DNA of 64,000 nt from Chitinophagaceae bacterium (lineage in GTDB: Bacteria > Bacteroidota > Bacteroidia > Chitinophagales > Chitinophagaceae): NCBI GenBank assembly GCA_043788995.1, contig JAYWII010000121.1:15361-79360 (forward strand), read 5' to 3'. The notes under the pieces were generated by a model. The model saw only the letters and a program-made list of their open reading frames with translations. It made no database searches and had not been told where the DNA came from. Of this stretch, positions 48,869 to 64,000 are shown one piece after another. A program made the position numbers and the translations under genes. Position 1 is the first letter of the stretch. The number at the start of each line of letters is the position of its first letter.

Positions 48869-49720
48869 TTGGAAAAAAGAAAAATGGAAGTTGCAGTTAT
48901 TTCCGATGTGCATCTGGGTACTTATGGATGCCGTGCAAATGAACTGTCCCGCTACCTCTCTACAATAGATCCCACCATCCTGGTGCTGAACGGAGACATC
49001 ATCGACATCTGGCAATTCAGTAAAAAGTACTGGCCTCCGGGACACATGCAGGTGATCAAACAAATTACAAGTATGCTTAGCCGTGGGGTGAAAGTGTATT
49101 ACATCACCGGCAATCATGATGAAATGCTCCGCAGGTTTGAGAATTTTTCAGTGGGTGATTTTCATATTGTAAATAAATTAGTCATTCATCATGGCAACAA
49201 TGCCAGAAGCTGGATATTTCATGGAGATGTGTTTGATGTAACCATGCAATACAGTAAATGGTTGGCTAAGCTGGGAGCGGTGGGATACGACATGCTGATT
49301 TACATTAATGCCTTTATCAATTATATCAGTAAAAAATTAGGTAAGGGTAAAATATCTCTGTCAAAAAAAATTAAAAATTCTGTAAAGACTGCAGTTAAAT
49401 ATATTAACAGCTTTGAGCAAACTGCTGCAGAGATCGCTATTGAAAAAGGATACGATTATGTTCTATGCGGTCATATTCACCAACCGGCAGACAGGATCAT
49501 CACCACCAATAACGGAAAAGTAAATTATCTAAATTCTGGTGACTGGATTGAAAACCTGACCGCATTAGAATACAGCGACAACAAATGGACGGTGTATCAT
49601 TATCAGCAGGATGAATTAGTAAAGGAACTACACAATTCCTATTACATAGATGAAGCTGCATATTTACGTACAACAGAATTGTTCAAAATGATGATGGAAG
49701 ATTTTTCAAAAGCTTCTTAA
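48869..49720 (+). CDS. Metallophosphoesterase, LpxH/PlcP-like
   Basis: SDVHLG, GDIID, YWP..H, GNHD, HGDVFD, GHIH, NSGDWIE; TTG start. Confidence 0.85.
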   Translation: MEKRKMEVAVISDVHLGTYGCRANELSRYLSTIDPTILVLNGDIIDIWQFSKKYWPPGHMQVIKQITSMLSRGVKVYYITGNHDEMLRRFENFSVGDFHIVNKLVIHHGNNARSWIFHGDVFDVTMQYSKWLAKLGAVGYDMLIYINAFINYISKKLGKGKISLSKKIKNSVKTAVKYINSFEQTAAEIAIEKGYDYVLCGHIHQPADRIITTNNGKVNYLNSGDWIENLTALEYSDNKWTVYHYQQDELVKELHNSYYIDEAAYLRTTELFKMMMEDFSKAS

Positions 49721-49728
49721 AATTTAAA

Positions 49729-50787
49729 ATGATGAAAGTACTATACGCCATACAGGGAACAGGTAATGGACATGTGAGCAGGGCCAACGAAATTATTCCA
49801 ATGCTGCAGCAAAAGTGTGAACTGGATATTTTACTCAGCGGTACGCAGGCAGATGTAGGTGTTAATTATCCTGTTAAATACAGGCTCAAAGGGTTGAGTT
49901 TTGTTTTTGGTAAAAAAGGTGGCATCGATTTTTATAAAACATTTGAACAACTGCAATCAAAGAAATTTTTAAGTGAAATAAAAGCATTGCCAGTAGAAGA
50001 CTATGATTTAGTGATCAACGATTTTGAACCCATCAGTGCCTGGGCATGTAAAATAAAAAATGTTCCCTGTATAGCCATGAGCCACCAGTTTGCAGTATTG
50101 CATAAAAATGCACCCAGGCCGGCAAAGTTTGATCCCCTTGCACTGATGGTATTGCGTTATTATGCTCCCTGCAAAACTGGCGTAGGTTTTCATTTTAAAA
50201 AATATGGTGAAAATATTTTTACCCCGGTAATAAGAAAAGAAATCAGGAATGCAACTGTAACAAATAAGGGGCACTATACAGTTTACCTGCCTGCCTATGA
50301 CGATAAAAAAATAATTTCATTTTGTTCCAATTTTAAAAATACTGACTGGCAAATTTTTTCCAAACATACAAAAAAATCATACCGGGAAAAGAATTGCTGG
50401 ATACGCCCCGTAAGTGCAACTGATTTTACTGAAAGTTTTATTAGCTGCGAAGGTGTTCTTTGCGGTGCAGGTTTTGAAACACCGGCAGAAGCATTGTACA
50501 TGCATAAAAAAGTGCTGGTGATACCAATGAAGGCGCAATACGAACAACATTGCAATGCAGCAGGCGCTGCAGAACTGGGCGTTCCTGTAATTAAAAGTTT
50601 AAAGAAAAAACATATTCACAAAGTGGATACCTGGCTGAGCAGTGAGCAGCAAATTGAAGTGGATTTTGAAGATGACACCAACCAGATAATAGACCAGGTA
50701 TTATCTTTAGCGGCTTCAAAAAAGCTTGATGAAAAAGTGAGAAGAAAATTAATTGTACCAGAAGCGGTATCAGCGCAATGGGTTTAG
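49729..50787 (+). CDS. GT-B glycosyltransferase
   Basis: QGTGNGHVSRA, DFEP, GAGFETPAEA, QYEQHCNA. Confidence 0.85.
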   Translation: MMKVLYAIQGTGNGHVSRANEIIPMLQQKCELDILLSGTQADVGVNYPVKYRLKGLSFVFGKKGGIDFYKTFEQLQSKKFLSEIKALPVEDYDLVINDFEPISAWACKIKNVPCIAMSHQFAVLHKNAPRPAKFDPLALMVLRYYAPCKTGVGFHFKKYGENIFTPVIRKEIRNATVTNKGHYTVYLPAYDDKKIISFCSNFKNTDWQIFSKHTKKSYREKNCWIRPVSATDFTESFISCEGVLCGAGFETPAEALYMHKKVLVIPMKAQYEQHCNAAGAAELGVPVIKSLKKKHIHKVDTWLSSEQQIEVDFEDDTNQIIDQVLSLAASKKLDEKVRRKLIVPEAVSAQWV

Positions 50788-50829: not shown

Positions 50830-51957
50830 TTATAAACTATCAATAATTTCTTCTGCATATCCGAACGACAATGTCATACCTGCACCACCCAATCCATTGA
50901 TAATATAAACACCCGGTTCAGGTGAAATAAAAAGCTCTGTGTCTCCATTCGTTAGTTTTGGATAAATACCATTCCAGTTTTCTTTGATTTTCCAGTTTTT
51001 AAACTTTGCTATTTTTTTTAAGTAAGAAAGAATTAAATCATTGATCTCCACTTTATCAAAAGGGTCATGTGTTAATCCATATTCATGTGAATCACCGATG
51101 GTCAGTTCACCCACTTCATTTTGTGCCACCATTACGTGTATGCCCCAGTTGATATACTCACTCATCTCTGTATTATATCTTTCTTTTAATTTTTCCAAAG
51201 AAGGTGCAGCAGCAAAGCTTTTGTAATGGATCAATGATAAACCTCCGCAAAGTGCAGGGCCTATCCGCCACTTATCCGGCTGTGTTTGCAGCCGCATCAT
51301 TTGCAGTTTACATTTAGTGATGGGCAATTTTAAATATACTTCAGGGTACAAGGTTTCAAAATCTGCACCGCTGCAAATAAGTATCACATCTGCTTCATGT
51401 TCTTCATCATTGCCAATGTACACTGTGTTATCTGCTATATAAGTAATGCATTTACCCCAGTAAAATTCCACACCATTTTTTTCATTCAAATAAGTTGGTA
51501 TCAATTCTATTGCATGTCTTGCATCCACCAGTAATTCATCTTTACTGTACAGCCCTCCCAGCAAACCATTGGATTCCACGGCTGATGAAAAATCTGTTAC
51601 CTGGTCTTTATTAAACAAAGCAATGGTTCTTTCCTTATTATAACAATCGTACAATTCATGCAACACCTGCATCTCATCCTGTTGATGTGCCACATGAATA
51701 CTGCCTGCTTCACTGTGCCAGATATTGGCTTCTGTGCAGATCTGTTTCCAGATTCTTCTGCTTTGCAACGCTCTTTCATATAGTTTTCCTGATGGCTGCC
51801 CAATGGGCCATATCATTCCAAAATTTCTGATGGACGCACCAACGGCTTTTTGGCTGCGTTCAAAAACCTTTACCTTAAATCCTTTATTAGTAAGTGCCCT
51901 TGCTGTTGCCAGGCCTACAATACCTGCGCCGATAACGATGGCTGTACGTTGTTCCAT
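50830..51957 (-). CDS. FAD-dependent amine oxidoreductase, TIGR03364/PbfC-like (phosphonate-associated)
   Basis: GAGIVG, GASIRNFGM, IGDSH, GLGGAGMTLSFG; cluster context. Confidence 0.85.
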   Translation of the reverse strand: MEQRTAIVIGAGIVGLATARALTNKGFKVKVFERSQKAVGASIRNFGMIWPIGQPSGKLYERALQSRRIWKQICTEANIWHSEAGSIHVAHQQDEMQVLHELYDCYNKERTIALFNKDQVTDFSSAVESNGLLGGLYSKDELLVDARHAIELIPTYLNEKNGVEFYWGKCITYIADNTVYIGNDEEHEADVILICSGADFETLYPEVYLKLPITKCKLQMMRLQTQPDKWRIGPALCGGLSLIHYKSFAAAPSLEKLKERYNTEMSEYINWGIHVMVAQNEVGELTIGDSHEYGLTHDPFDKVEINDLILSYLKKIAKFKNWKIKENWNGIYPKLTNGDTELFISPEPGVYIINGLGGAGMTLSFGYAEEIIDSL

Positions 51958-53246
51958 ATAGCAAAACCTTTTTTATGCTTATTTAAAAAATACATAACAG
52001 AAAAAACCGTGGCGATTACACCGAAAATTGAAACCCCTATAATCGCATTTGAAAAAAAACTGACCCATTGCAGCCGGATATGAAATACTTCTTTACCCAA
52101 CAAAACAAGCATGCTTCCCAGGTAACCAAAAGAATCAGCACAATACATCAGGAAGCCTACATTGCCATTGATGCGGAATGCAGCGATCATTCTTTCAAAC
52201 AGCATACAGTTAAAAGGTATGTAAGCAGTATACAATCCGATACCCACTAAAATCATCCAGGTAGCAGGATGAATGGCCTGGTTTAAAAAAAGCCAGGTGG
52301 ATACGCCGCTCAATATAAAACCCAGTATGATCAAACCATGAGCAATAATAAATGCGTTAAAACTTTTTTTCACAAACACTAAACTGGCGATCAGGATCAA
52401 AACAATAATAGTAACGGGAATTTCTGTTTCGGTAAATATCGCAGCCTGGTTAGAGAAGCCCAATTCATTCCAGATATCCGCAGCAAAATTATCTCTCATA
52501 TCCCTGAAGATGGTGAGAAACACATAGATGATGATGAGCAATAAGATACCCGGAAAAAAACCAGCGATTAGTTTTTTTCTTTCTTCTTTACTCATCGGAT
52601 TTCTTGGATGCCTTAGCCGGATATCTGCTTCAGTGGGAGCAGGTATTTTTTCTAATAAAAAAACAAAGATCAATAATGGTAAAATAAACAATAAGCCGGT
52701 GGCAAATGGAAGCCAAAATTCAGTAACACTCCAATGAAGCATTAAATACTTGGCAACGGATTTTACAAAACCAGAAGAAAAAATAAAACTTACTGCCAAA
52801 GCGGCTCCAATAAAATCAGTGGCCCGCCTTCCTTCGATATAAGAAAATATGATACCCCAGATAATACCTAACGGAAAGCCATTAAAGAAAAGAAAAACAA
52901 TATTGACAGGTGGAGGAACAACTGCAAAAAAAAGTAGTGAGATCCATGAGATACCAACCAAAACGAACATCATCTTCCACCTGCCAATTTTTTTTAACTC
53001 TGAAATAAATTTTATTCCATAAAACTTACTGCAGACATACCCGGCAAGCTGTGTGATTACCAAACATACTTTATAACTGATGCCCCAATAACTCAGGCCA
53101 TCAAAAGTAGCAACGGTAAATGGCTTACGGAAAGCATATACCGTTCCGTACGTTAAGAACACAGCTATGGCCGCAAACACTGCCACAACTGTGGGATGAT
53201 TAAAAAATGTTTTACTTATAGATGCGTTAGTTTGCAACAGCAACAT
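51915..53246 (-). CDS. DUF5690 family MFS-like membrane transporter
   Basis: About 12 TM; YAFRKPF, SYIEGRR, DSFGYLGS; overlaps both neighbours. Confidence 0.8.
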   Translation of the reverse strand: MLLLQTNASISKTFFNHPTVVAVFAAIAVFLTYGTVYAFRKPFTVATFDGLSYWGISYKVCLVITQLAGYVCSKFYGIKFISELKKIGRWKMMFVLVGISWISLLFFAVVPPPVNIVFLFFNGFPLGIIWGIIFSYIEGRRATDFIGAALAVSFIFSSGFVKSVAKYLMLHWSVTEFWLPFATGLLFILPLLIFVFLLEKIPAPTEADIRLRHPRNPMSKEERKKLIAGFFPGILLLIIIYVFLTIFRDMRDNFAADIWNELGFSNQAAIFTETEIPVTIIVLILIASLVFVKKSFNAFIIAHGLIILGFILSGVSTWLFLNQAIHPATWMILVGIGLYTAYIPFNCMLFERMIAAFRINGNVGFLMYCADSFGYLGSMLVLLGKEVFHIRLQWVSFFSNAIIGVSIFGVIATVFSVMYFLNKHKKGFAIWNNVQPSLSAQVL

Positions 53247-53934
53247 TTTTTATTAGTGATGGCAATTCTTTCAGGTCATCAATAATTTCATCAGGTTGAT
53301 AAGATTCCAATTCGGCTCTTGTAAAAGAACCAGTGGTAACAGAAACCACCAGGCCACAACCAGCAGTTCTGCCTTCGGCAATATCCACTTCTGTATCCCC
53401 AACTTTAACCACGGTCCCTGCATCTGTAATACCAGTGGCTTTCATAATAGCCTGTATCATATCTGCCGATGGCCGGCCATTTTCCACTTCATCACTGCTG
53501 ATAATAAAATCAATTAAACTGTTATCATGCCATCCAACCCTTTCCATGATAGTGTCGGTAATCAGTTTTGAAAAGCCCGTATTCAACGCTACTTTAATAT
53601 CATTATCCTGCAGCCATTTAAAAATCGATTCTGCACTTTCTATCGGCAGTATCTCTTTGGAATGTTCATAAAAATCAATCATGGTTTCAATGAATGTGTC
53701 ATGAATTTCATTGATCAAATTTTCACTTTCGATAATGCTGCCGGGGTAATTGGATTGGAGCAAATCATTAATAGCAATCATTTTTTTATAGCCCATTACT
53801 TTATTCGCCTGGTCCTTATCAATGGGGTAGCCATGCTTTTGCATCGCATACATAAATGCTTCGGCCACATTTGAATTATCCTGGATAGTGGTGCCGGCCA
53901 TATCAAACACTACTAATTGAAAAGTTGGTTGCAT
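53227..53934 (-). CDS. Phosphonatase-like HAD hydrolase (PhnX-like, TIGR03351-type)
   Basis: FDMAGTT, MGYKK, ALNTGF, GRP, KVGDT..DI.EG. Confidence 0.85.
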   Translation of the reverse strand: MQPTFQLVVFDMAGTTIQDNSNVAEAFMYAMQKHGYPIDKDQANKVMGYKKMIAINDLLQSNYPGSIIESENLINEIHDTFIETMIDFYEHSKEILPIESAESIFKWLQDNDIKVALNTGFSKLITDTIMERVGWHDNSLIDFIISSDEVENGRPSADMIQAIMKATGITDAGTVVKVGDTEVDIAEGRTAGCGLVVSVTTGSFTRAELESYQPDEIIDDLKELPSLIKNVAVAN

Positions 53935-53943
53935 ATCGTTTAA

Positions 53944-54534
53944 TTATATCTGGTTAAATGCGTATTGTCTTTGCAGGTAGTTTATCATTAAGTCTTTGAA
54001 ATAATCCATTGGCTGCAGGGGCAGGTTTTCTTCCTTAGCTAACTCATCCCACCGGCGCATTGCTATAAACTCTTCAAACAATTCATCCTGTTCAAATAAC
54101 AGGGCTTCGTCATAATTCATTCTGCCGCCCTGGAACTCCAGTGTTTTTTTACTGGCGTCTGAAAGACCTTCGTAATATTCAGGATATTTAAAAGTGAGAT
54201 AACGTTTTGCTGATACATGATTTTCCACCAGCCTTGCAATTCTTTCACTAAATCCTCTCTTACGTAAAAAGTTGGCGCCGATCTTTTCATGATTCATCAC
54301 ACCAAAGCCATTCATATCTGCTGTGATGTAAGATGCTGCACAGATATGCCCGATATCATGCAGGAAAGCAGCAAGCACTATTTCATCATCATACCCACCC
54401 TCCTTTGCTAACTGAGCTGCCTGCACCATGTGCTCCAGTTGGGAAACTTTTTCACCGGCATATTCATTGCTACCATGTTTTTGATAGAGCTCAAATATTT
54501 CTTCCACTACCGGGATGATTTTTTTAGCAGTCAT
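53944..54534 (-). CDS. HD-domain phosphonate oxygenase, PhnZ-like
   Basis: YAGEKVSQLEH, LHDIGH, HEKIGA, HVSAKRYL, RRWDELAK. Confidence 0.85.
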   Translation of the reverse strand: MTAKKIIPVVEEIFELYQKHGSNEYAGEKVSQLEHMVQAAQLAKEGGYDDEIVLAAFLHDIGHICAASYITADMNGFGVMNHEKIGANFLRKRGFSERIARLVENHVSAKRYLTFKYPEYYEGLSDASKKTLEFQGGRMNYDEALLFEQDELFEEFIAMRRWDELAKEENLPLQPMDYFKDLMINYLQRQYAFNQI

Positions 54535-54614
54535 AAACCTGATTGATAGTTATTACAATTTATTTGACCGTATTTAATTGCTATACAACCTGACGGTCAG
54601 CAGTAAAATTTAAT

Positions 54615-56171
54615 TTATTTAATGATCCACATTTTTGCATTGATATCATCGGTGCCACCAAACTGTGATTGAATAGCACTGCTTACATTAGCCAGGTTGA
54701 TTGACTTTTCAGAAACTGGATATTGAAATCTTAATGCTACTCTTTCACTATTGCCAGTTCCAGCGCCTGTATGAAAAGCAGGTGTACCCGTTCTGCGCCA
54801 GTTATAATATGCTTCCCAGCCACTGTTCTGGTAAAAGGCAAGGTATTTTTGAGTTAATATTTGTTCTAATGCTGTCGTTTTTGCTTCGGATAATTTTACT
54901 GAAGGCTGGTTATAGTAAGTGGCCCAATCATAATTAATTGTATAAGTATTATAATCGTTTAATGTGCCGCCTGGTTTTTGAAATGTTACGGTATTACTAC
55001 CATCAGCAATATCATAAAAACCAATACTGGCCTGTATACCTTTTTTATACCAGTCTTCTTCATTGCCAGTAATCCATCCACGAGTGATAGCTTCTGCTAT
55101 ATTAAAGCAGAGTTCAGGGTAACCTACCTGTATGGTATTCTCTGCCGTATAAGTACTGTAATATCTTTTACGGTTAATAAAAGAATATTTACCTAACCCT
55201 GCATCAGCACTCATGTTGGCCAGGTCTTCACCGCTGCCTGCACCTTTAAACGCATCAAAACTATTAGGCGCCTTGCCTGCTGCTACCAACGCCGCTGCAG
55301 GCTCTGCTACATAAAAAGTACGTGGATCTCTAAGCGAAACCAATCTGTCCAGGTAAGTAGAAGTCATGTTGTAACGGGCAGCATCAAAACCAAAATTATC
55401 CGGATTGGTGGAGTATTTATTGTATTGGTTGTTGTAGGTATATTGCAAATTTTCACTCATACTTTCAAACACAGGATACTTAGATGAGTTGGTAAACGTT
55501 TCTGCAAATTTTTGTTTTACGTTTAAATCAGCATCAGCTTCCTGCTTACTCAATTGTATCAATACCCTCAGCTTAAAACTATTGACTGCTTTGCGCCATT
55601 TATTTAAATCATTATTATAATAAAAATCGCTGGACAATATATAATTACCCTTTGTAACAATCGCAGCCATTTCATCATTTGATTCTTCCAACCATGCCAG
55701 TATTTGTTTAAATACATCCTTTTGAGTATCGTATTTTGGAGCGGTATTCTCCAATGATTTTAATGCTTCAGATACCGGGATATCACCTGTTTGCATGGTA
55801 AGATTATAGTACATATATGCTCTTACATATTTACCAATGGCGGTATATGGATTAGGTGCAGGAATACTTTTAGCCGCTTCCTCTTCCATCTTAATTACAT
55901 TCTTCAATGTATTGTAGGTATTAAATGAAACACCGGTCCAGGTATATTGCTGGTCACCGTAGTAGGCATAATTGCAGGCATAAAACTGGTTCCAGCGCTG
56001 GGTAGGTGTAAATGGTTCTTCAAATATATCTGTCAGTACCCCATTTAAAATAAGATTTGCAGGAACGCTGGTTGGTCTGTTAGGGTCGCTCTCCAGCGAA
56101 TTAAAATCTTTTTTACAGGAAGCAACAAACAAAGTGCTGCTCATTAATATGATTGAAAATATCTTTTTCAT
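54615..56171 (-). CDS. susD: SusD/RagB family outer-membrane lipoprotein
   Basis: Lipobox FVASC, DPN, GDIPVSEAL, EAYYNWRRTG; downstream of susC. Confidence 0.9.
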   Translation of the reverse strand: MKKIFSIILMSSTLFVASCKKDFNSLESDPNRPTSVPANLILNGVLTDIFEEPFTPTQRWNQFYACNYAYYGDQQYTWTGVSFNTYNTLKNVIKMEEEAAKSIPAPNPYTAIGKYVRAYMYYNLTMQTGDIPVSEALKSLENTAPKYDTQKDVFKQILAWLEESNDEMAAIVTKGNYILSSDFYYNNDLNKWRKAVNSFKLRVLIQLSKQEADADLNVKQKFAETFTNSSKYPVFESMSENLQYTYNNQYNKYSTNPDNFGFDAARYNMTSTYLDRLVSLRDPRTFYVAEPAAALVAAGKAPNSFDAFKGAGSGEDLANMSADAGLGKYSFINRKRYYSTYTAENTIQVGYPELCFNIAEAITRGWITGNEEDWYKKGIQASIGFYDIADGSNTVTFQKPGGTLNDYNTYTINYDWATYYNQPSVKLSEAKTTALEQILTQKYLAFYQNSGWEAYYNWRRTGTPAFHTGAGTGNSERVALRFQYPVSEKSINLANVSSAIQSQFGGTDDINAKMWIIK

Positions 56172-56192
56172 TGGTTGATTTTTTATTACTTA

Positions 56193-59100
56193 TTAAAAAA
56201 CAATATTTAGATTAATACCATAACTCCTGGTAGTAGGCGTTTGCAGGTTGGTGCCAGATTGGCTACCGGCATATTGGTCAATATCCACATCATTGAAACG
56301 TTTGTCTTTCATTATGTAAAGGATATTACGTGCCACAAAAGAAACATTGGCCTGCTGAATAAAACTCTTTCCAACGGGGATGTTATATCCTAACACGATC
56401 TCTCTCAATTTCAGGTACGACTTGCTCATCATGTTTGGCTCAGGGATACTATTTACACGGCTTGTATAATCCTGGGCATATGTTGTGGTGGTATTGGTTG
56501 CAAATTGCAATTCACTGTAATTGGTAATTAAACCTGTTACCGGATCAAAAGTTATTGCAGTACCATTGGATACCTGTACACCTTCGCCAACGTACGCCTT
56601 GATACCCTTTGTGTCTTCATAACGGGCAATACCCAATGCACCTTCCGCTGTTTCAATATGGCGTCCTCCCTGGAATGTTTTCTTCCTAACATAATCTTCC
56701 ATTACACCACCTACACGTCCGTCGAACTGGAAGCTGAACGATATATTTTTATAACTAAACTTGTTGTTTACACCCCAAACCCAATCAGGATTAGAATTAC
56801 CTGCATACTGTGCTACCGGCGATATGATTGGCCTTCCTCCTGCATCATTGATAATTTGTCCATTAGGTGTACGTGCAAATTTTCTGATGTACACTTCATC
56901 TGTACGGCTTCCTTTTGTATAAAATGTATAAAGATTGGTAACGCCTTCAGGTAATTCCTTAAAGGTTTCCTTAAAGGTTGACCAGTTCACCAGCACATCC
57001 CAGTTAAATCCATCCGCAGATCTGATGGCTGCACCTGCCAATGTAATTTCCAACCCCTTCTTTTGTGTTTTGGTTGCATTAATGGTATAATTAGAATAGC
57101 CGGAAGCTGCAGAAATTTGTTTGTTAAATATCTGCGGACCATCTATATAATTGAAATAGGCCACATCAATCCCGATCCTGTTTCTTAAGAATTTCATATC
57201 CAGTCCCAATTCTACGTTGGTTCTGTTATCCGGCTTAATATTATCATCTAACACTTTATCTGTAAAGCGGGCTTCTGTTGTATTGTTATAACCTACTCCT
57301 GTGCTGTACACATTGTTATATGAATAAGATGGGCCACCATAAGAGGAAGTATATTCAGCACCATAGCCCAGCGGGTATGAACTGTTAGGTGTGGCACCAA
57401 TGGTATTGGCTACAAAGGAACCACCACCTCTAACCTGTGCATAAGATGCTCTTAACTTAAAGAAAGAAATAGCAGCAGGGATTTTTATGTAATCACTGAT
57501 AACGGTACTAACGTTTACGGATGGGTAAAAGAAAGTATTGTTCTTACTGGACAAGGCAGATAATTTATCTACTCTTCCAGTGGTGTTGATATTGGCGTAT
57601 TTACCTAAACCGAAATCAACTGAATAATAACCACTCTGCACTCTCATGTCCGAAGCAAAATTGTATGCCAGCACCGGGTTGCGGCTGTTGCTGAAAGTAT
57701 ATACATTCGGTACGTTCAAATAATTGGTGGTAACAAAACTGGAGGCATAAGAAAAAGTACGGAGGTTAGCACCGATGAATCCACTCATGTTTAAAAAGCC
57801 AGCTACCTGTGGGGATTTCAGCCGTACCATTACTTCTGTATTGTTTTCAAACAACGAACGTTTATCTTCCCTGTAATCACCCCTTCCCTCTTCACGACCG
57901 TATGGATGTGCTGAGAAAGGCATTTTTTCTGTCCTGGTTAAATCATAAGTAGTAACAGAAGTTCTCGCCATCAACTCTACATATTTATTAGCCTTATAAT
58001 TCAATGTTGCATATCCATAAATATCATTTTTATGATGCCCACGCAGCCATTCATAGCTCATAAAATAAGGATTGTGATAGCGCTGGTACTCAGCATAGAT
58101 GCTTTGCACACCTTCTTTACCAGGTTGCCAGTAATTACGCATATCATCTACGTTCCAGTCTGCACCACCCCAGATCGTCATGTTATAAATAACACTGTTG
58201 GGGCCATAATTTACATCTGGTATATTATCGGTGTATTGCTTGTTGAAATTGATGTTTGCATCCAGCGTCAATTTTTTACTAAACTTCAAGGTGGCAGCCA
58301 GGTTAAAATTGCTGGTGCTTAAATCTGTGTTGGGAATAATTCCCTGCTGATAGGTTTGCCCTACAGAAAAACGCAGATCATATTTTTCACCACTTGCAGA
58401 AACAGCAATATTATTGGTAGATAATACACCGGCCCTGATAAAACGCTGCAGGTTGTCTTTACCTCTTGCAGTCCATGGAGTTGGGGTACGGATGCCCGTT
58501 ACCGGATCAACCGGGCTGTCATATTGCTCAATTAACTGGCCATCAAAACGTGGTCCCCAGATATCATAATCGTTGTCATTTACGCCGCCGCCTTTGCCAT
58601 CAACAAATTTGTATTTGCCGTGATCACCCGGACCATACAGATCCTGTGTTTTAGGCAAAGCAATAAAACCTTTGTTCATCATGGTACTGCTGTTAAATTC
58701 CACAGAGTAGCCACGCTTGTCTTTGGTACCTTTTTTGGTAGTGATAATGATGGCACCATTCTGCCCACGGTAACCGTACAATGCAGAAGCAACAGGGCCT
58801 TTCAATACCGTGTAACTTTCAATATCATCCGGGCTGATGTTCCAGGTATCTGAATTGATGGGAACACCATCTACTACATACAAAGAAATATTACCACCCC
58901 GCAGTAATATCTGCGGAGCACCCAACAATTCTGCAGAAGCACCAACCGTAAGGCCTGCTACTTTACCTACCAGGGAGTTAATGGGGTTTGGTTCACGGGC
59001 CTTTATCAAATCACTTCCCTTCACTTCCTGCTGGGAGTACCCAATAATTTTTTTATCTTTTTTAATACCGAGTGCTGTTACCACCACTTCGCCCAATTGC

Positions 59101-59414
59101 TTATTTTCTGCAACCAGGCGAATGGTTAAAAATTCTTTGGAAGCTGTGATTTGTTGGTTTTGAAATCCAATAAAACTGATGTTCAGTTTTTCTCCCTGGG
59201 CAGCAGTTATTTCAAAAGTTCCATCCGCACCAGAGATGGCGCTTTTGCTGGAAGTCTTACTGATAATACTTGCGCTTTCTACAGGAGCGCCATTTTCTGC
59301 ATCTACTATTTTTCCTTTAACAGTGATGGTTTGTGCATTTAAAAACTGGGAGGAAAGAAATATTGTTATTACTAATAACAACAGTCTTTTGAATGGGGAA
59401 ATTACTTGCTTCAT
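56193..59414 (-). CDS. susC: SusC/RagA family TonB-dependent transporter
   Basis: EVVVTALGI, LKGPVASALYGYRGQNGAIIITTK, C-terminal LNIVF. Confidence 0.95.
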   Translation of the reverse strand: MKQVISPFKRLLLLVITIFLSSQFLNAQTITVKGKIVDAENGAPVESASIISKTSSKSAISGADGTFEITAAQGEKLNISFIGFQNQQITASKEFLTIRLVAENKQLGEVVVTALGIKKDKKIIGYSQQEVKGSDLIKAREPNPINSLVGKVAGLTVGASAELLGAPQILLRGGNISLYVVDGVPINSDTWNISPDDIESYTVLKGPVASALYGYRGQNGAIIITTKKGTKDKRGYSVEFNSSTMMNKGFIALPKTQDLYGPGDHGKYKFVDGKGGGVNDNDYDIWGPRFDGQLIEQYDSPVDPVTGIRTPTPWTARGKDNLQRFIRAGVLSTNNIAVSASGEKYDLRFSVGQTYQQGIIPNTDLSTSNFNLAATLKFSKKLTLDANINFNKQYTDNIPDVNYGPNSVIYNMTIWGGADWNVDDMRNYWQPGKEGVQSIYAEYQRYHNPYFMSYEWLRGHHKNDIYGYATLNYKANKYVELMARTSVTTYDLTRTEKMPFSAHPYGREEGRGDYREDKRSLFENNTEVMVRLKSPQVAGFLNMSGFIGANLRTFSYASSFVTTNYLNVPNVYTFSNSRNPVLAYNFASDMRVQSGYYSVDFGLGKYANINTTGRVDKLSALSSKNNTFFYPSVNVSTVISDYIKIPAAISFFKLRASYAQVRGGGSFVANTIGATPNSSYPLGYGAEYTSSYGGPSYSYNNVYSTGVGYNNTTEARFTDKVLDDNIKPDNRTNVELGLDMKFLRNRIGIDVAYFNYIDGPQIFNKQISAASGYSNYTINATKTQKKGLEITLAGAAIRSADGFNWDVLVNWSTFKETFKELPEGVTNLYTFYTKGSRTDEVYIRKFARTPNGQIINDAGGRPIISPVAQYAGNSNPDWVWGVNNKFSYKNISFSFQFDGRVGGVMEDYVRKKTFQGGRHIETAEGALGIARYEDTKGIKAYVGEGVQVSNGTAITFDPVTGLITNYSELQFATNTTTTYAQDYTSRVNSIPEPNMMSKSYLKLREIVLGYNIPVGKSFIQQANVSFVARNILYIMKDKRFNDVDIDQYAGSQSGTNLQTPTTRSYGINLNIVF

Positions 59415-59440
59415 AAAACAACGTTTAGTTTTGTATGAAG

Positions 59441-59507
59441 CAAAACTACCAGCGCTGTGTTAAGTAATAATTGTGGGAATATTAACTAAAAGTAAAGTAA
59501 TGGTAAA
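59441..59507 (-). promoter_or_regulatory. Candidate Pho-box-like array plus perfect -7 box for the phosphonate operon
   Basis: TTTACC, TTTACT, TTAATA, (ACAATT), TTAACA at exact 11-bp period, 9-nt gap, TAGTTTTG at 59448-59441. Confidence 0.6.
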
Positions 59508-59529
59508 CTTATTGTAGTATTGAGCCAAC

Positions 59530-59552
59530 TTTGTTTACAAATATTAAACAAA
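59530..59552. promoter_or_regulatory. Candidate XRE operator (8-7-8 inverted repeat)
   Basis: TTTGTTTA-CAAATAT-TAAACAAA. Confidence 0.45.
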
Positions 59553-59583
59553 AGATTAAGAAATTATTAAAGCCATTTTGAAA

Positions 59584-60162
59584 TCATGCTTTCTCTTTGA
59601 ATATATAGATTACCAGTATTAAGGCATCCTCTTCTCCTGTATTATAAGGGTTATGCAATTCTGTTCCATCAAAAAAAAGTGAGTCGCCTTCTTCCATCTC
59701 ATAAGTCTCTTCTCCGATCTTATATTTTATTTTTCCCTTTAACAGGTATTTAAATTCGAAGGCATCTGTACTTACAAAATCTCTTTCCGAATCTCTTTCT
59801 AATCGAAGTAATACAAAGTCTGCATGGTATTCATGTATGGTGGTGGAAAGCAGGCGCTGGTAATAAAATCCTTTGGCATTTTCTTTTTCAAAAGGCTGGT
59901 ATTGTTCTTTCTTTTTAAAGATCACTTTACTGTCCTTGGGCTGAAGATTGATATCCTTAAAAAACTCATTAAAATCTACCTGCAGGGCTTTAATTAAATT
60001 CAGCAAAACTGTTAAAGAAGGAATGGTACGGCTGTTTTCTACCTGGCTCAGCATGCCTTTTGTTACACCGGCTTCTTCTGCCAGTTGCTGCAGGGTGATG
60101 TCTTTTTCTTTACGGATATCTTTCAGTCGTTTGCTTATCTGTATAATAATATCTTCCTGCAT
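59584..60162 (-). CDS. XRE-family HTH plus cupin transcriptional regulator
   Basis: TLQQLAEEAGVTKGMLSQVEN..TIPSL; cupin EFKYLLKG...GDSLFFDG..H. Confidence 0.92.
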   Translation of the reverse strand: MQEDIIIQISKRLKDIRKEKDITLQQLAEEAGVTKGMLSQVENSRTIPSLTVLLNLIKALQVDFNEFFKDINLQPKDSKVIFKKKEQYQPFEKENAKGFYYQRLLSTTIHEYHADFVLLRLERDSERDFVSTDAFEFKYLLKGKIKYKIGEETYEMEEGDSLFFDGTELHNPYNTGEEDALILVIYIFKEKA

Positions 60163-60209: not shown

Positions 60210-60614
60210 TCATTCCTTTATTTGAAGTAATAGTTTTTTTGCTTCCCGGGATAATTGAGAAGCATTGCTTATCCCTTTGAATGAAAAAGTAAACTGGCTG
60301 CAGTCATCACTATTCATCCTGAAATAAATATCCTGTATCACCATATCGGTTTTAAAAAAATGAATTGATCCATCATAGCCGCAGTTAATTTTTTCTTTGG
60401 TAATATCATCTGCAATAAAACTGCTCAACTGGTTCAGTGTATTTTTATCTTTTATCATCTTAACCAGTACCACCGTATCCATACTGCCATCGCCTTTAAA
60501 ATAATTAATAGCAACACTGTCGGCAAGAACCAACCGTTCTTTCAGTTCTTTATTATTGTGCTTACAGGAAAAAAATAAAGCCGTTGCAAAAATGATTATC
60601 AGTGTTGTTCTCAT
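60210..60614 (-). CDS. Small hypothetical lipoprotein
   Basis: ATG at 60614 gives the signal MRTTLIIIFATALFFSC. Confidence 0.7.
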   Translation of the reverse strand: MRTTLIIIFATALFFSCKHNNKELKERLVLADSVAINYFKGDGSMDTVVLVKMIKDKNTLNQLSSFIADDITKEKINCGYDGSIHFFKTDMVIQDIYFRMNSDDCSQFTFSFKGISNASQLSREAKKLLLQIKE

Positions 60615-60640
60615 ATGATAAAGATAAAAGTAAAGGGCAT

Positions 60641-60752
60641 AAAAAAACCACCCAATATGATTAAAAGGTGGTACAAGCATGAGATTTACTAATTGCTTAA
60701 GGAACTTGTTTGTATTGCTATAACTTAACCGATTGCCTTGTTTTACTTGATG
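60641..60752 (-). ncRNA. Candidate ~110-nt small RNA or regulatory leader
   Basis: Lies between a -7-like box (GAAATTGCA from 60762) with an upstream 11-bp-period array and an ACCACC/GGTGGT+T6 terminator at 60672-60641. Confidence 0.4.
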
Positions 60753-60755
60753 CTG

Positions 60756-60810
60756 CAATTTCAAATTGTTTTGTTACTGAAACATTAATTACAGATTAAG
60801 GTTATGTTAT
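60756..60810 (-). promoter_or_regulatory. Candidate Pho-box-like array plus -7-like box
   Basis: ATAACA, TTAATC, TTAATG, GTAACA at exact 11-bp period, 9-nt gap, GAAATTG. Confidence 0.55.
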
Positions 60811-60863
60811 CAAGAGCTGGTGATCACAGATAATGTTACTGAAAAAAGTATTTCGGCATCAAT

Positions 60864-60891
60864 AAAAAAAGCAGCCCTGAAGGCTGCTTTT
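60864..60891 (-). terminator. Intrinsic terminator of the TBDR-lipoprotein operon
   Basis: AAAAGCAGCC/GGCTGCTTTT stem plus T-run. Confidence 0.85.
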
Positions 60892-60917
60892 AAAATATAA
60901 AAATTTGTAAGTATTAC

Positions 60918-62324
60918 TTAAAATTTTGTCCATATTTTCCACCAGGTATCGCCTACTGCACATGCACCTTTGTAAGTAACCGGAGTAAATCCTGTTGCAA
61001 GTTTTGGATGTGTGAAAGCACCACCTGTTACTGCTACCGAAGCTGCAGTTGGATTAAAGTCAGGGGCTGTATAATTAAATGGAGCTGTTAGACCCACTTC
61101 AGTGTTATTGGTAAGGATACTGTTACCATAATCTGCAGTATTGAACCATTCTGTAATAGTAGCAGTGGTATTTGCCGTAAGCGGAGCGTTTGTATTAGAA
61201 CCTAAGCTGTACAACACCGGCGTAGCACTGCCTGCGATAATATTGTTTTGTACAAACAGGGAACCAGGGATATTATTATCAGTTGGAACACCTTTGGTAG
61301 CATCAATATATAAACCATTTGGATAACCCATGATGATGGAATTAAAAAGAGACAGGCTTGAATTTCTCCTGATCTGTGCACCCCATACAAATAAATTATT
61401 TCCTCTATTAGCCAATGTTTCTCTCGGTCCCATTACGGTCATGTTAGAAAAGATTGCTGCAGTTTGCGGCAATAAAGCACTACCGTTTGCATCATTATCA
61501 CTTTCAAATGCTTCACTTTTAGAAATATCAGCAACAGATGAATCTCTTAAAGAAATACCAAACTGTACTTTACCAACAAAACCATTATCTGTATCAAAAT
61601 CATCATCCAAAGTTCGGAAAGAGATAAGGTGGGTACAATTTACAGTACCGCCAAACCATTCAAAAGAATCATCATTGGCGTAAGATACCTGCACATAATC
61701 GACAATTGTTTTGTTACCCACACCACCAAATGTTAAACCATTAATTTCTTTATCTGGTAAAAAAGCAAAGCCTGCATATTCAATACGAACATACCTTAAG
61801 ATACCACTGTTATCAGCAGGATTTTGTGCCTGTGTTGCAGGTGTACCATATAAACCCAATCCATCACTGTTGTTGATACCGCCTTCAATTTCCCCTATAC
61901 CCTGTACTCCATTAAAAGATGAATTAGCAGGAGCATTACCTAATACTACCAAACCAGCCCAATCACCACGCTGAGGGGTAGCCGCTTCTGATGTAAATAC
62001 AATTGGTTTTTCGGCAGTAGCATCAGCAATAATTTTACAGCTTCTTGTAATAATCAGTCCGCCATTTTTACCAGCTTCACCTACTATTTTAGTGCCTGGT
62101 TCTATCGTAAGAATGGCACCATTAGTTACATAAACCAATCCACGTAATTTATAAACATAATCTGCCTTCAGGGTCCTGTTAGCTGTTATACGTCCTTCCA
62201 GGATCGTGTTTTCTGTTTCACCTGTTGGTGGAGTTGTTGTACTGCCATTATCATCCACCACAATTTTGCGGCAACTGGTAAACAGGGCAGCGAATAATAC
62301 ACCGTAAATAAATAACTTTTTCAT
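60918..62324 (-). CDS. Surface lipoprotein with probable right-handed beta-helix
   Basis: Lipobox LFTSC; SGILRYVRIEYAG, NGLTFGGVG, DDSFEWFGG, DDDFDTDNG. Confidence 0.75.
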   Translation of the reverse strand: MKKLFIYGVLFAALFTSCRKIVVDDNGSTTTPPTGETENTILEGRITANRTLKADYVYKLRGLVYVTNGAILTIEPGTKIVGEAGKNGGLIITRSCKIIADATAEKPIVFTSEAATPQRGDWAGLVVLGNAPANSSFNGVQGIGEIEGGINNSDGLGLYGTPATQAQNPADNSGILRYVRIEYAGFAFLPDKEINGLTFGGVGNKTIVDYVQVSYANDDSFEWFGGTVNCTHLISFRTLDDDFDTDNGFVGKVQFGISLRDSSVADISKSEAFESDNDANGSALLPQTAAIFSNMTVMGPRETLANRGNNLFVWGAQIRRNSSLSLFNSIIMGYPNGLYIDATKGVPTDNNIPGSLFVQNNIIAGSATPVLYSLGSNTNAPLTANTTATITEWFNTADYGNSILTNNTEVGLTAPFNYTAPDFNPTAASVAVTGGAFTHPKLATGFTPVTYKGACAVGDTWWKIWTKF

Positions 62325-62366
62325 GCTTGTATTTTTTGTTGTTTGTTGTTTTTAATTGAATTATTA

Positions 62367-64000
62367 TTAAAAATTATAACCGAATGTTAAGCTAACGTTG
62401 GTACCATACTTTCTTTTAATTGCGAACGCATCTGCACCTTCATTATATTTTTTATTACCGTCTAGGTCGTTATAAAAAATAGCCTGTTTATTAAAAATAT
62501 CTGCCACATTTAATCTCAATTCTCCCTTTGATTTTAATATTTTTTTACCTACCTGGAAATCCAGTACCGGTCTTGGGTTTTCCCAGATGGGGGGCTGGTC
62601 TGATCCACCCACATAAGCAATCCTTCTTCCGATCTGGTTAAAAAGTAATGTGGTGCTTAAGCCATATTTTTCTACATCATACTGTAAAGAAGCATTTACC
62701 AGGTAAGGGCTCTGCCCCTGCATGGGTCTTTCCTCACCTCCACCACCAACTCCAGTTACCCGATTGTATATGTAAGAAAAATTACCCTGTAAAGTGAAAT
62801 TTTTTAATGCTTCATTGAAATCCAGTTTCTTTCTAAATTCCAGTTCTGCCCCAAAGCTGTTAGCTTCTTTTGCATTGAGAAAATTGTAGCTGCTACTGGC
62901 TGCACCAGCTTGGTTGTTAAAATATAATTCGATAGGGTTTTCAAAATATTTATAAAAAATACCCAAAGTAAAAAGCTCTCCTGCCCGTGGGTATAGCTCA
63001 TACCTAAGATCAAAGTTGGAAACTTTTGTTCTTAACAATCCTGTGTTCCCTGCTACGGTAGCGCCTAAGTCAAAATCATAAAACTGGAAAGTGCTTAATT
63101 CCCTAAACTCTGGCCGGATCACCGTTTGCGAACCAGATACCCTTACATTGGTGGTACTGTTTACTTTATAGGTAAGGTTTACACCAGGCAGGTAATCCGT
63201 TTTTTTGCTGTTTACAAAACGGGCATCACTTTTTCTAACACTTCCAATCAATTGATCAAAATCTTCTACTCTCAACCCCCACACCATTCTTAATTTATTT
63301 CCAATCTGGTTATCGAATTGTAAAAATCCTGCGTTCAAAATGGAATTGGCCAGGTAGCGGTAGGTATCTCCCGGTAATTCATTTAAAGCGAATTTATTAT
63401 CTGTTCCGTTGCCAAAATTTTGCGAAGCAAATATTTGATCAGCAGGCAACTCTCTTAAAGTTTTATTGTTAGCAGGCAGCCAGAAAGCAAAAGGCCTTGA
63501 ATCAAACAACCTGTCTTTTACTTGGAAAAAATATCCTCCTTTAATGGTTTGCGACTGATCATTTATTTTAAATGTTTTACTCAGATCGCCACCGGCTGTG
63601 TAGATGTAGTCATTTAAATATCCAAAATAGCGGCTGCCACTTTTTTGTGAAAGACCAGACTGACCAATGGTGGCTAAATAGGGTGACCCCGGCAATGTTA
63701 CATCCTGTGTATACTGCAACCTGCGCTGGTCAGGTATGTATTGATCCAGGATATTGAAGCTGCCAAACCAGTGAAACTTTGCACCAAGCTTTGTAAGATT
63801 ATGATCGCCGGAAAGCTGTGTATTAAAAAAAGTATTGGCCTTAAAAGCTAACTCTGTTGCCCTTATATTATCTCCTGATTCAGAAATGGAGTTGTCAAAT
63901 TCTTTACCAGTTCTTAAAGTGGCGTAATCAGTAGTATTAATGTTGAGCAAATTTTTGAAGGAAATTTTACTGTTGTTTCCTATCTGCAAAGTGATATTGG
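62367..64000 (-). CDS. TonB-dependent receptor (5'-truncated by window edge)
   Basis: Frame open to the edge; RPEFREL, NFDLRYELYP, GAELEFRK, QGQSPY; C-terminal YNF. Confidence 0.9.
   Translation of the reverse strand, partial: NITLQIGNNSKISFKNLLNINTTDYATLRTGKEFDNSISESGDNIRATELAFKANTFFNTQLSGDHNLTKLGAKFHWFGSFNILDQYIPDQRRLQYTQDVTLPGSPYLATIGQSGLSQKSGSRYFGYLNDYIYTAGGDLSKTFKINDQSQTIKGGYFFQVKDRLFDSRPFAFWLPANNKTLRELPADQIFASQNFGNGTDNKFALNELPGDTYRYLANSILNAGFLQFDNQIGNKLRMVWGLRVEDFDQLIGSVRKSDARFVNSKKTDYLPGVNLTYKVNSTTNVRVSGSQTVIRPEFRELSTFQFYDFDLGATVAGNTGLLRTKVSNFDLRYELYPRAGELFTLGIFYKYFENPIELYFNNQAGAASSSYNFLNAKEANSFGAELEFRKKLDFNEALKNFTLQGNFSYIYNRVTGVGGGGEERPMQGQSPYLVNASLQYDVEKYGLSTTLLFNQIGRRIAYVGGSDQPPIWENPRPVLDFQVGKKILKSKGELRLNVADIFNKQAIFYNDLDGNKKYNEGADAFAIKRKYGTNVSLTFGYNF

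Follow-up and report, generated by a model that had tools for sequence, protein, structure and literature searches.

We analysed a 64,000-nucleotide stretch of DNA (the window; C121:15361-79360) from the 6.27-Mb, 148-contig genome of a freshwater or soil member of the Chitinophagaceae and found that its segment 50830-60162 is a real, conserved, and almost certainly functional aminophosphonate scavenging locus. Phosphonates hold a considerable part of organic phosphorus, and much of the recycling of organic matter in soil, the rhizosphere, and fresh water falls to Bacteroidota. The locus joins a SusC/SusD outer-membrane pair, a kind of importer that normally handles sugars, to carbon-phosphorus (C-P) enzymes and a DUF5690 membrane protein. 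We consider it probable that it operates like a polysaccharide utilization locus, but for phosphorus from natural aminophosphonates, by the mechanism outlined below.

In this mechanism, the cargo would be 2-aminoethylphosphonate (AEP), N-methyl-AEP, and (R)-1-hydroxy-2-aminoethylphosphonate (HAEP), either free or as phosphonolipid or head-group esters. At the cell surface, the SusD lipoprotein would bind the ligand, which SusC would then import with TonB energy. For most relatives, release of the aminophosphonate would fall to periplasmic phosphoesterases whose genes lie within the locus, and here the beta-propeller enzymes encoded elsewhere in the genome may take this part. DUF5690 would then move the aminophosphonate over the inner membrane. 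In the cytoplasm, the FAD-dependent oxidase PbfD would turn AEP and N-methyl-AEP into phosphonoacetaldehyde, from which a PhnX-like hydrolase of the haloacid dehalogenase (HAD) superfamily would yield acetaldehyde and inorganic phosphate (Pi). PhnZ, without a PhnY* partner, would split imported (R)-HAEP into glycine and Pi. One -7 promoter would drive the genes, under probable dual control by PhoB-type activation at boxes phased by 11 nt and by an XRE-cupin regulator at the palindrome GTTTA-N7-TAAAC.

The list of open reading frames (ORFs) places seven genes in the segment, all on the minus strand:

59584-60162, minus strand: XRE-type helix-turn-helix and cupin regulator, 192 aa (HTH_3 1.5e-14, Cupin_2 3.1e-12)
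56193-59414, minus strand: susC, SusC/RagA-type TonB-dependent outer-membrane transporter, 1073 aa (TIGR04056, TIGR04057, Plug)
54615-56171, minus strand: susD, SusD-like surface lipoprotein, 518 aa (PF12771, 2.6e-60)
53944-54534, minus strand: PhnZ-type HD mixed-valent di-iron oxygenase, 196 aa (TIGR03276; match to 4MLM/4N71)
53227-53934, minus strand: PhnX-like HAD hydrolase, 235 aa (TIGR03351, TIGR01422; aligned to 1RQL)
51915-53246, minus strand: DUF5690 membrane protein, 443 aa (PF18943, 555.6 bits)
50830-51957, minus strand: PbfD FAD-dependent oxidase, 375 aa (TIGR03364, 421.4 bits)

From the regulator to the HAD gene, the intergenic spacings are 169, 21, 80, and 9 nt. The next two junctions are overlaps of 20 and 43 nt, and the gene 3' of the FAD oxidase gene is convergent. 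An earlier note on this DNA had described six co-oriented genes with 9-80 bp gaps or overlaps behind an XRE-cupin gene, and its coordinates, gene order, and domain calls all match ours. G+C content is even over the region, and each of the seven genes is present in a single copy in the genome.

The association of the outer-membrane pair with the C-P genes is conserved. We scanned one genome per species for relatives of SusD, found 239, and analysed the best 80 (51-85% identity), of which 34 loci were fully flanked, with at least 9 kb on both sides of susD. One or more of the HD, HAD, DUF5690, and FAD genes were present in 30 of these 34 loci, the HD gene and the DUF5690 gene in 28 each, and the FAD and HAD genes in 22. 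The closest relatives, at 82-85% identity, were metagenome-assembled genomes of Ferruginibacter. Other Chitinophagaceae among the 80 loci belonged to Sediminibacterium, Lacibacter, Flavihumibacter, Terrimonas, and Puia, and the remaining hosts included Spirosomataceae (Emticicia, Spirosoma, Lacihabitans, Leadbetterella), Haliscomenobacter, and Pseudopedobacter. The HD gene directly follows susD in 17 loci by a row count of the survey. Gene order was strongly rearranged among families and the linkage was nevertheless kept, which argues that this SusCD clade is dedicated to the C-P cluster. The linkage is, on this genomic comparison, far beyond chance.

In Spirosomataceae, the locus is split (Emticicia L112, L117-L119, and L124; Spirosoma L115, L125, and L138). 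There, susC, susD, and phnZ, in some cases followed by a gene of the nucleotide pyrophosphatase/phosphodiesterase (NPP) type, form one unit, while the DUF5690, pbfD, and HAD genes are found upstream and point in other directions. In this family, it is phnZ that remains beside susCD.

A second, independent survey started from DUF5690. The PF18943 model was run against 401 Bacteroidota genomes and scored above its cut-off in 35, and about 20 kb was retrieved around 36 matches. A row tally found a FAD, HAD, or HD homologue within 9 kb in 25 of the 36 loci, an XRE-cupin gene in 12, and a SusD of the same family in 8. The earlier note had called for a synteny survey of DUF5690 and TIGR03364 loci for linked susCD. 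Class III/V aminotransferases, a Zn-dependent dehydrogenase (Zn-ADH), Ca-dependent phosphatidylinositol-specific phospholipase C, NPP-type phosphodiesterases, purple acid phosphatases, and a PhoB-like response regulator were further recurrent neighbours. These neighbours place DUF5690 consistently in a context of phosphonate use and phosphorus scavenging.

The three enzymes of the locus carry the catalytic signatures of phosphonate catabolism. The HD protein matches the PhnZ structures 4MLM/4N71 with an E value of 4e-48, and its His/Asp motifs and YxGE are identical to those of PhnZ 4MLM in the alignment. The conserved residues (own numbering) are Y25, E28, H35, H59, D60, H63, H82, H106, K110, T131, Q135, R160, and D163, which we take to be metal or substrate contacts, with the Y25/E28 pair of YxGE presumably gripping the 2-amino group. 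The roles of these PhnZ residues were reportedly worked out by van Staalduinen et al. in 2014. The protein scored 210.6 with TIGR03276, the AEP-type PhnZ model (cut-off 214.6), far above its scores of 140 with TmpB and 123 with GmPhnZ1. Y-x-G-E was found in all 54 HD orthologues and a signal peptide in none of them. We interpret the HD protein as a probable cytoplasmic (R)-HAEP oxygenase that would produce glycine and Pi.

The HAD protein scored 189.1 with TIGR03351 (cut-off 218.9) and 114.7 with TIGR01422 (cut-off 220), and it is the best PhnX-like protein encoded in the genome. Aligned to Bacillus cereus PhnX (1RQL), it keeps FDMAGTT (the DxAGT nucleophile motif), MGYKK with the cap Schiff-base Lys53, the Arg of GRP, and GDTEVD (GDTxxD), and it has replacements at PhnX Cys22 and His56. 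Judged from this alignment, it is a PhnX-like enzyme and not a canonical PhnX, and probably acts in the cytoplasm as a hydrolase of phosphonoacetaldehyde or hydroxy-phosphonoacetaldehyde.

The FAD protein scored 421.4 bits with TIGR03364, well above the cut-off of 285.1. It is 42% identical over its full length to PbfD2 of Mariniblastus fucicola and 28% identical to PbfD1; the PbfD2 query was re-typed from optical character recognition of Figure S2 of Zangelmi et al., so a few letters of it may be wrong. The earlier note had read TIGR03364 as a PbfC-type group. This has to be corrected, as the TIGR03364 annotation corresponds to the PbfD group (Zangelmi et al. 2023, PMC10590968), and the copy in the window resembles PbfD2. 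PbfD2 oxidises AEP and N-methyl-AEP to phosphonoacetaldehyde and thereby replaces PhnW (PMC10590968). With its TIGR03364 score, its similarity to PbfD2, its clustering with a phnX-like gene, and a genome without phnW, the FAD protein belongs with PbfD and is probably a PbfD2-like oxidase of AEP and N-methyl-AEP that gives phosphonoacetaldehyde. Signal peptides were predicted for none of the locus enzymes, whereas the esterases of relatives, described below, do carry one.

We then asked what other phosphonate genes the genome holds. No PhnW gene at cut-off and no gene of the TauD family were found genome-wide, and neither were PhnD-type or AepX-type binding proteins, PhnJ (C-P lyase), or phosphoenolpyruvate (PEP) mutase. 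As PhnD, AepX, PhnW, the TauD family, and PhnJ are absent, the locus is the only recognisable phosphonate route in the genome. A biosynthetic role of the locus was rejected, since this bacterium, being without PEP mutase, does not make phosphonates. A PhnY* partner for PhnZ was also considered and rejected. The locus contains no PhnY*/TmpA-type dioxygenase, no dioxygenase-sized family recurs in the 80 related loci, and the TauD family is missing. All five PhyH-family genes of the genome are unlinked to the locus, and the three that were tested are not PhnY-like (at most 50 bits against the 500-bit PhnY cut-off). Because no PhnY*-type partner is present, PhnZ most likely acts on imported (R)-HAEP, that is, on a ready-made 1-hydroxy-phosphonate.

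SusC scored 416.6 bits with TIGR04056 (cut-off 368.25) and 47.1 with the TIGR04057 signature (cut-off 46.2), and its Plug match has an E value of 2.3e-11. It has a signal peptide, an N-terminal CarboxypepD_reg domain, and a plug, without an STN domain, and susD starts 21 nt downstream, as expected of the SusC/RagA family. SusD matches PF12771 (SusD-like_2) with 204.9 bits over residues 31-485 and begins with MKKIFSIILMSSTLFVASC, with the lipobox VASC and Cys19, which identifies it as a SusD/RagB lipoprotein. It falls in PF12771/PF12741, and its score with PF14322 is just 20.5 bits, under the cut-off. The nearest solved structures are the uncharacterised SusD homologues 3MX3, 3EJN, and 4LER. 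Given their genomic company, the SusCD proteins of this clade are best described as dedicated to phosphonate loci.

DUF5690 had no MFS_1 match at E <= 0.001 in a Pfam search, and its structure was predicted with AlphaFold2 from 28 homologues (pLDDT 89.8, pTM 0.89). All Foldseek matches of this model in the PDB were transporters of the major facilitator superfamily (MFS), with TM-scores of 0.5-0.65 for the top matches, and the top 50 included G6PT1/SLC37A4 (the human glucose-6-phosphate transporter), PiPT, sialin, and GlpT. The model and these matches give DUF5690 the twelve-helix MFS fold. Invariant charged residues include R40, K74, R89, R140, R215, R248, D249, and R352. In the protein collection that was searched, the family numbers 4,800 homologues or more, and Caulobacter has a homologue outside Bacteroidota. 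A homologue search returned close relatives only, with no cross-phylum context, and a full-text literature search found a single, unrelated paper that mentions DUF5690 and no link to phosphonates. We propose from the modelled fold that DUF5690 is a divergent MFS transporter and a candidate inner-membrane aminophosphonate permease. It is the sole candidate for such a carrier in the genome. Comparative genomics, residue checks, and the fold model thus back two proposals of the earlier note, namely that SusC/SusD captures substrate in a TonB-dependent manner and feeds the aminophosphonate cluster, and that DUF5690 serves as the inner-membrane permease in place of PhnCDE/AepX.

The nature of the cargo is informed by accessory genes. 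In most related loci, the stretch between susD and phnZ or the flank of susC holds an additional 1-7.5 kb of genes, among them one to three for exported phosphoesterases and often one for a second TonB receptor. The additional genes encode a protein of about 360 aa from the alkaline-phosphatase/NPP superfamily (22 of the 80 loci), one or two 810-930-aa proteins combining a beta-propeller with a PF04185 phosphoesterase domain of the PLC/AcpA family (35 of 80), and a TonB receptor of about 675 aa (24 of 80). Both kinds of esterase have a Sec signal peptide without a lipobox and are probably periplasmic for that reason. The annotated families that recur in the 80 loci are the C-P enzymes, phosphoesterases, the TonB receptor, PlcP, and the glycosyltransferase. 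No glycoside hydrolase was found among those recurring in at least five loci, and Pfam had no match for one recurrent family, a protein of 180 aa present in five loci. Orthologues of the two propeller esterases and of the receptor, 77-86% identical, are encoded on another contig of the genome analysed here (G000), and an NPP-like gene at 46% identity is on contig C18:

C97:8405-15698 (L147:4405-11698), minus strand: two beta-propeller + PF04185 phosphoesterases and a 688-aa TonB receptor

This module stands by itself, flanked by genes for a WYL-domain regulator and an M19 dipeptidase, and by synteny it has moved relative to related genomes. A second phosphonate gene set beside it was considered and rejected, as the C-P genes are all single copy and the C97 neighbours are unrelated. 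From the lack of a glycoside hydrolase or phosphodiesterase gene, the earlier note had concluded that the substrate is small. The observation holds for the copy in the window. The conclusion is not safe, because esterases occur in most relatives and have orthologues on C97. As cargo, phosphonate esters derived from phosphonolipids or from head groups of these are, by analogy with PusCD1/2, no less plausible than free AEP.

The region upstream of susC contains three candidate regulatory elements:

59441-59448, minus strand: -7 box TAGTTTTG, 26 nt upstream of the susC ATG
59458-59508, minus strand: Pho-box-like array of TTTACc, TTTACt, TTAAtA, an empty position, and TTAACA in 11-nt phase, ending 10 nt before the -7 box
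59533-59549, minus strand: palindrome GTTTA-N7-TAAAC (GTTTAATATTTGTAAAC), candidate operator of the XRE-cupin regulator

The single -7 box claimed in the earlier note is indeed the sole intergenic TAnnTTTG of the locus. Taken alone it is weak evidence, as six more matches lie inside genes, which is about the chance number. A -7-like box can be read by eye, without a count, at the equivalent place in most orthologous susC promoters. A sigma-70 promoter scan, which is not meaningful for Bacteroidota, predicted fewer sites than in shuffled sequences, and no terminator-like site was predicted in the gap between susD and phnZ.

PhoB/PhoP-type Pho boxes share an 11-nt geometry, and the PhoP repeat of Bacillus subtilis is TT(A/T/C)ACA. 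In the orthologous susC promoters (n=62), T[AC]AC cores in the forms TTAACA, GTAACA, and TTCACA lie just before the -7 box, and they are 11, 22, and 33 nt apart in 17, 22, and 14 cases, where about one is expected. The same spacings occurred 0, 1, and 1 times in a control set of 25 other SusC-type promoters of the genome. Counting exact TT[ATC]ACA gave a modest signal only.

The palindrome co-occurs with the regulator gene. The pattern GTT[TC]A-N7-T[AG]AAC is present in 8 of 9 orthologous susC promoters with an adjacent XRE-cupin gene, in addition to the window, and in 1 of 51 promoters without one, and it has 38 matches in the 6.27-Mb genome. From this co-occurrence, the palindrome is a good candidate for the operator of the XRE-cupin regulator. 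Homologues of this regulator (34-66% identity) lie beside catabolic genes in 10 loci of the SusD clade and in the 12 DUF5690 loci noted above, some of them without SusCD, suggesting that the protein, which has a PuuR-like architecture, is probably a substrate-responsive regulator of the locus. It would be most economical to read the two elements as a sign of dual control, with Pi status as one input and a regulator that senses a small molecule as the other. A further sequence, AAGTTTACCATTACTTTACTT at 59490-59510 (minus strand), coincides in part with the first two Pho-like boxes and is loosely similar to GTTTA...TAAAC; it fails the operator pattern.

Several observations weigh against the reading of the locus as a Pi-responsive scavenging system for aminophosphonates. 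The Pho-like boxes in the window are weaker than those of relatives, each being one base off TTAACA, and one array position is empty. Scanned strictly for three TAACAT boxes in phase, the whole genome gave 3 matches against 5 in shuffled sequences, and the promoter counts come from kindred sequences and are not independent events. Both the HD and the HAD protein fall slightly under their NCBIfam cut-offs, and the latter is without the PhnX residues Cys22 and His56. The window copy is without any esterase, which leaves the in-locus logic of the relatives incomplete here. In addition, free AEP (125 Da) could diffuse through porins, and the need for SusCD is not obvious.

Three other explanations were weighed. 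The cargo of SusCD may be a phosphonate or phosphate ester (a glycerophosphono-diester, a lyso-phosphonolipid, a ceramide-AEP head group, or a generic phosphodiester) and not a free aminophosphonate, with the periplasmic esterases being obligatory, relocated in this genome, and perhaps co-regulated through similar Pho-like boxes. We regard this as a substantial possibility that stops short of being probable. An NPP-like or propeller-PF04185 esterase, or both, is encoded in 28 of the 34 fully flanked loci, always with a Sec signal and often right after susD. The orthologues on C97 (77-86%) lie behind a TAGTTTTG box preceded by GTTAAC/GTTAAT repeats, and Flavobacterium PusCD1/2, treated below, provide a precedent of a lipid head-group importer working with periplasmic phosphodiesterases. 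Against this, susD runs straight into phnZ in the window, in locus L085, and in several Emticicia-type loci, and the esterase module of two propeller enzymes and a small TonB receptor is self-contained and may serve a different substrate.

It is improbable that the locus provides nitrogen or carbon in a substrate-induced, Pi-insensitive manner, as AepP/AepXVW do in Pseudomonas and marine Rhodobacteraceae, with the XRE-cupin protein as the sole relevant regulator. In favour of this idea are the conservation of the regulator and of its palindrome, documented cases of Pi-insensitive AEP catabolism (PMC8316502), and the presence of Pi-exporting organophosphate:Pi antiporters among the structural neighbours of DUF5690. 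However, the phased Pho-box-like arrays are conserved as well, and 51 of 60 promoters have no XRE-cupin gene nearby. The neighbouring genes are hallmarks of phosphorus starvation (PlcP with the glycosyltransferase, phosphoesterases, PhoB-like regulators), and the Flavobacterium PusCD4/5/6 clusters are induced at low Pi. Finally, the adjacency of SusCD and the C-P genes could be meaningless, with SusCD taking up an unrelated glycan or peptide and the enzymes using a substrate that diffuses through porins. The 80-nt gap between susD and phnZ would fit this, as would the fact that SusD-like_2 proteins are mostly unstudied, but we give the idea very little credence: the linkage holds in 30 of 34 loci from several families despite rearranged gene order, no glycoside hydrolase is among the annotated recurrent families, and the susD-phnZ gap has no predicted terminator-like site.

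The scavenging locus has neighbours on both sides:

48869-49720, plus strand: PlcP-like metallophosphoesterase (PF00149/PF12850), 283 aa, TTG start, convergent on the operon
49729-50787, plus strand: MJ1255/VC2487-family glycosyltransferase, 8 nt after the PlcP-like gene
60210-64000, minus strand, and on to C121:80567 (L148:727-3567): 946-aa TonB receptor (PF14905 + PF13620 + Plug), 468-aa lipoprotein, and 184-aa ORF

Of the 80 relatives, 17-19 have the PlcP-like and glycosyltransferase genes together next to the locus; by analogy, these genes are probably a membrane-lipid remodelling pair of phosphorus starvation. Just the last 540 aa of the 946-aa receptor are inside the window. The 468-aa lipoprotein and the 184-aa ORF have no Pfam or NCBIfam match; homologues of the receptor, lipoprotein, and ORF genes adjoin the locus in a few relatives, the lipoprotein family in 7 of 80 (for example L105, L120, L132, and L133). 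Contig C18 encodes further paralogues, three for the lipoprotein and two for the receptor. The receptor promoter, just past the window on C121 (L148:3568-3640), contains six GTAACAT/TTAACAT/TTCACAT boxes in exact 11-nt phase. A similar array is at C18:6122-6190, and weaker ones precede the propeller-phosphoesterase operon on C97 and the NPP-like gene on C18. Such 11-nt-phased arrays are a candidate Pho box of the Chitinophagaceae, and the region as a whole looks like a phosphorus-starvation island.

If the scavenging reading is right, TonB-dependent uptake by SusCD extends to C-P compounds, DUF5690 gains a function, and the common 'orphan' PhnZ genes are explained. To our knowledge, Bacteroidota are without PstS- and PhnD-type systems and without PhnCDE and AepX transporters. 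A bolder version, which we put forward tentatively and consider rather unlikely, is that the SusD clade is a dedicated high-affinity receptor for free small aminophosphonates and DUF5690 a new family of MFS permeases. The foremost ligand would be (R)-HAEP, because phnZ without phnY* is the most constant neighbour of the clade. SusCD would then be specific for a zwitterion of about 130 Da instead of an oligomer, and preformed HAEP and AEP would be a significant phosphorus source for Bacteroidota in fresh water and soil. The cultured carriers (Emticicia aquatilis CGMCC 1.15958, Spirosoma panaciterrae DSM 21099, Terrimonas pollutisoli, and Lacihabitans soyangensis KCTC 23259) and the two candidate regulatory sites make the hypothesis directly testable. 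The value of the present analysis lies in this detail and testability and not in discovery, as the concept was published previously.

The closest known systems are the PusCD proteins, the Pi-starvation-induced SusCD pairs of Flavobacterium (Lidbury et al., bioRxiv 10.1101/719427; ISME J, PMC8115612). PusCD1/2 are needed for growth on phosphatidylinositol, and PusCD1, whose structure was solved with inositol phosphate, imports inositol phosphate or glycerophosphoinositol for phosphorus nutrition (Connolly et al. 2026, bioRxiv 10.64898/2026.09.03.749221). The Pi-starvation-induced PusCD4/5/6 adjoin PhnX, oxidoreductases, and metal-dependent hydrolases, clusters that were noted only (Lidbury et al.). 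More generally, PusCD-like pairs co-localise with genes for phosphonate and aminophosphonate degradation and for inner-membrane organophosphorus transporters (Lidbury et al.; Connolly et al. 2026), and the distinct pusCD-like pairs that adjoin aminophosphonate genes 'should be explored' (Connolly et al. 2026). Like PusCD, the locus in the window has SusC/SusD beside phosphorus-scavenging enzymes and not carbohydrate-active enzymes, and it has relatives with periplasmic esterases. It may also be under Pi-starvation control, to judge indirectly from the 11-nt-phased Pho-box-like arrays of orthologous promoters. Unlike PusD1/2 (PF07980 + PF14322), its SusD belongs to PF12771/PF12741, and on account of this different Pfam family it is not an orthologue of PusD1/2. 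Its regulator is an XRE-cupin protein and not a pair of extracytoplasmic function (ECF) sigma and anti-sigma factors, and its cargo would be a C-P compound.

The enzymes resemble the cluster of M. fucicola, which combines PbfD2, phnX, and a phnZ homologue that was read as a route for (R)-HAEP (Zangelmi et al. 2023, PMC10590968). Both have a TIGR03364 oxidase, a phosphonoacetaldehyde hydrolase (predicted in our case), and a phnZ homologue, and neither has PhnW. In contrast to the locus described here, the planctomycete M. fucicola has no SusCD, and our HAD protein is of the TIGR03351 type without Cys22 and His56. The M. fucicola paper (PMC10590968) does not name DUF5690 as a transporter. The HD protein connects the locus to the PhnY*/PhnZ pathway through its match to the marine metagenome PhnZ (4MLM, E 4e-48), from which the locus differs in being without a PhnY*-type dioxygenase. 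At the inner membrane, AepP is a GlpT-like MFS permease for 2-AEP, and AepXVW and PhnCDE are ABC importers (Murphy et al. 2021, PMC8316502). DUF5690 shares with AepP the MFS fold, structural neighbours of the organophosphate:Pi antiporter kind, and a place beside catabolic genes, but it is a separate Pfam family.

The concept is thus already in print, both for PusCD-like pairs beside aminophosphonate genes and for the PbfD2-PhnX-PhnZ triad, which is a published type. What the present analysis adds is the finding that neither PhnY*-like genes nor any of the classical phosphonate transporters are present, a measure of how large and tight the dedicated SusD clade is, the MFS fold of DUF5690 with its genomic setting, the accessory esterase modules, and the two promoter elements.

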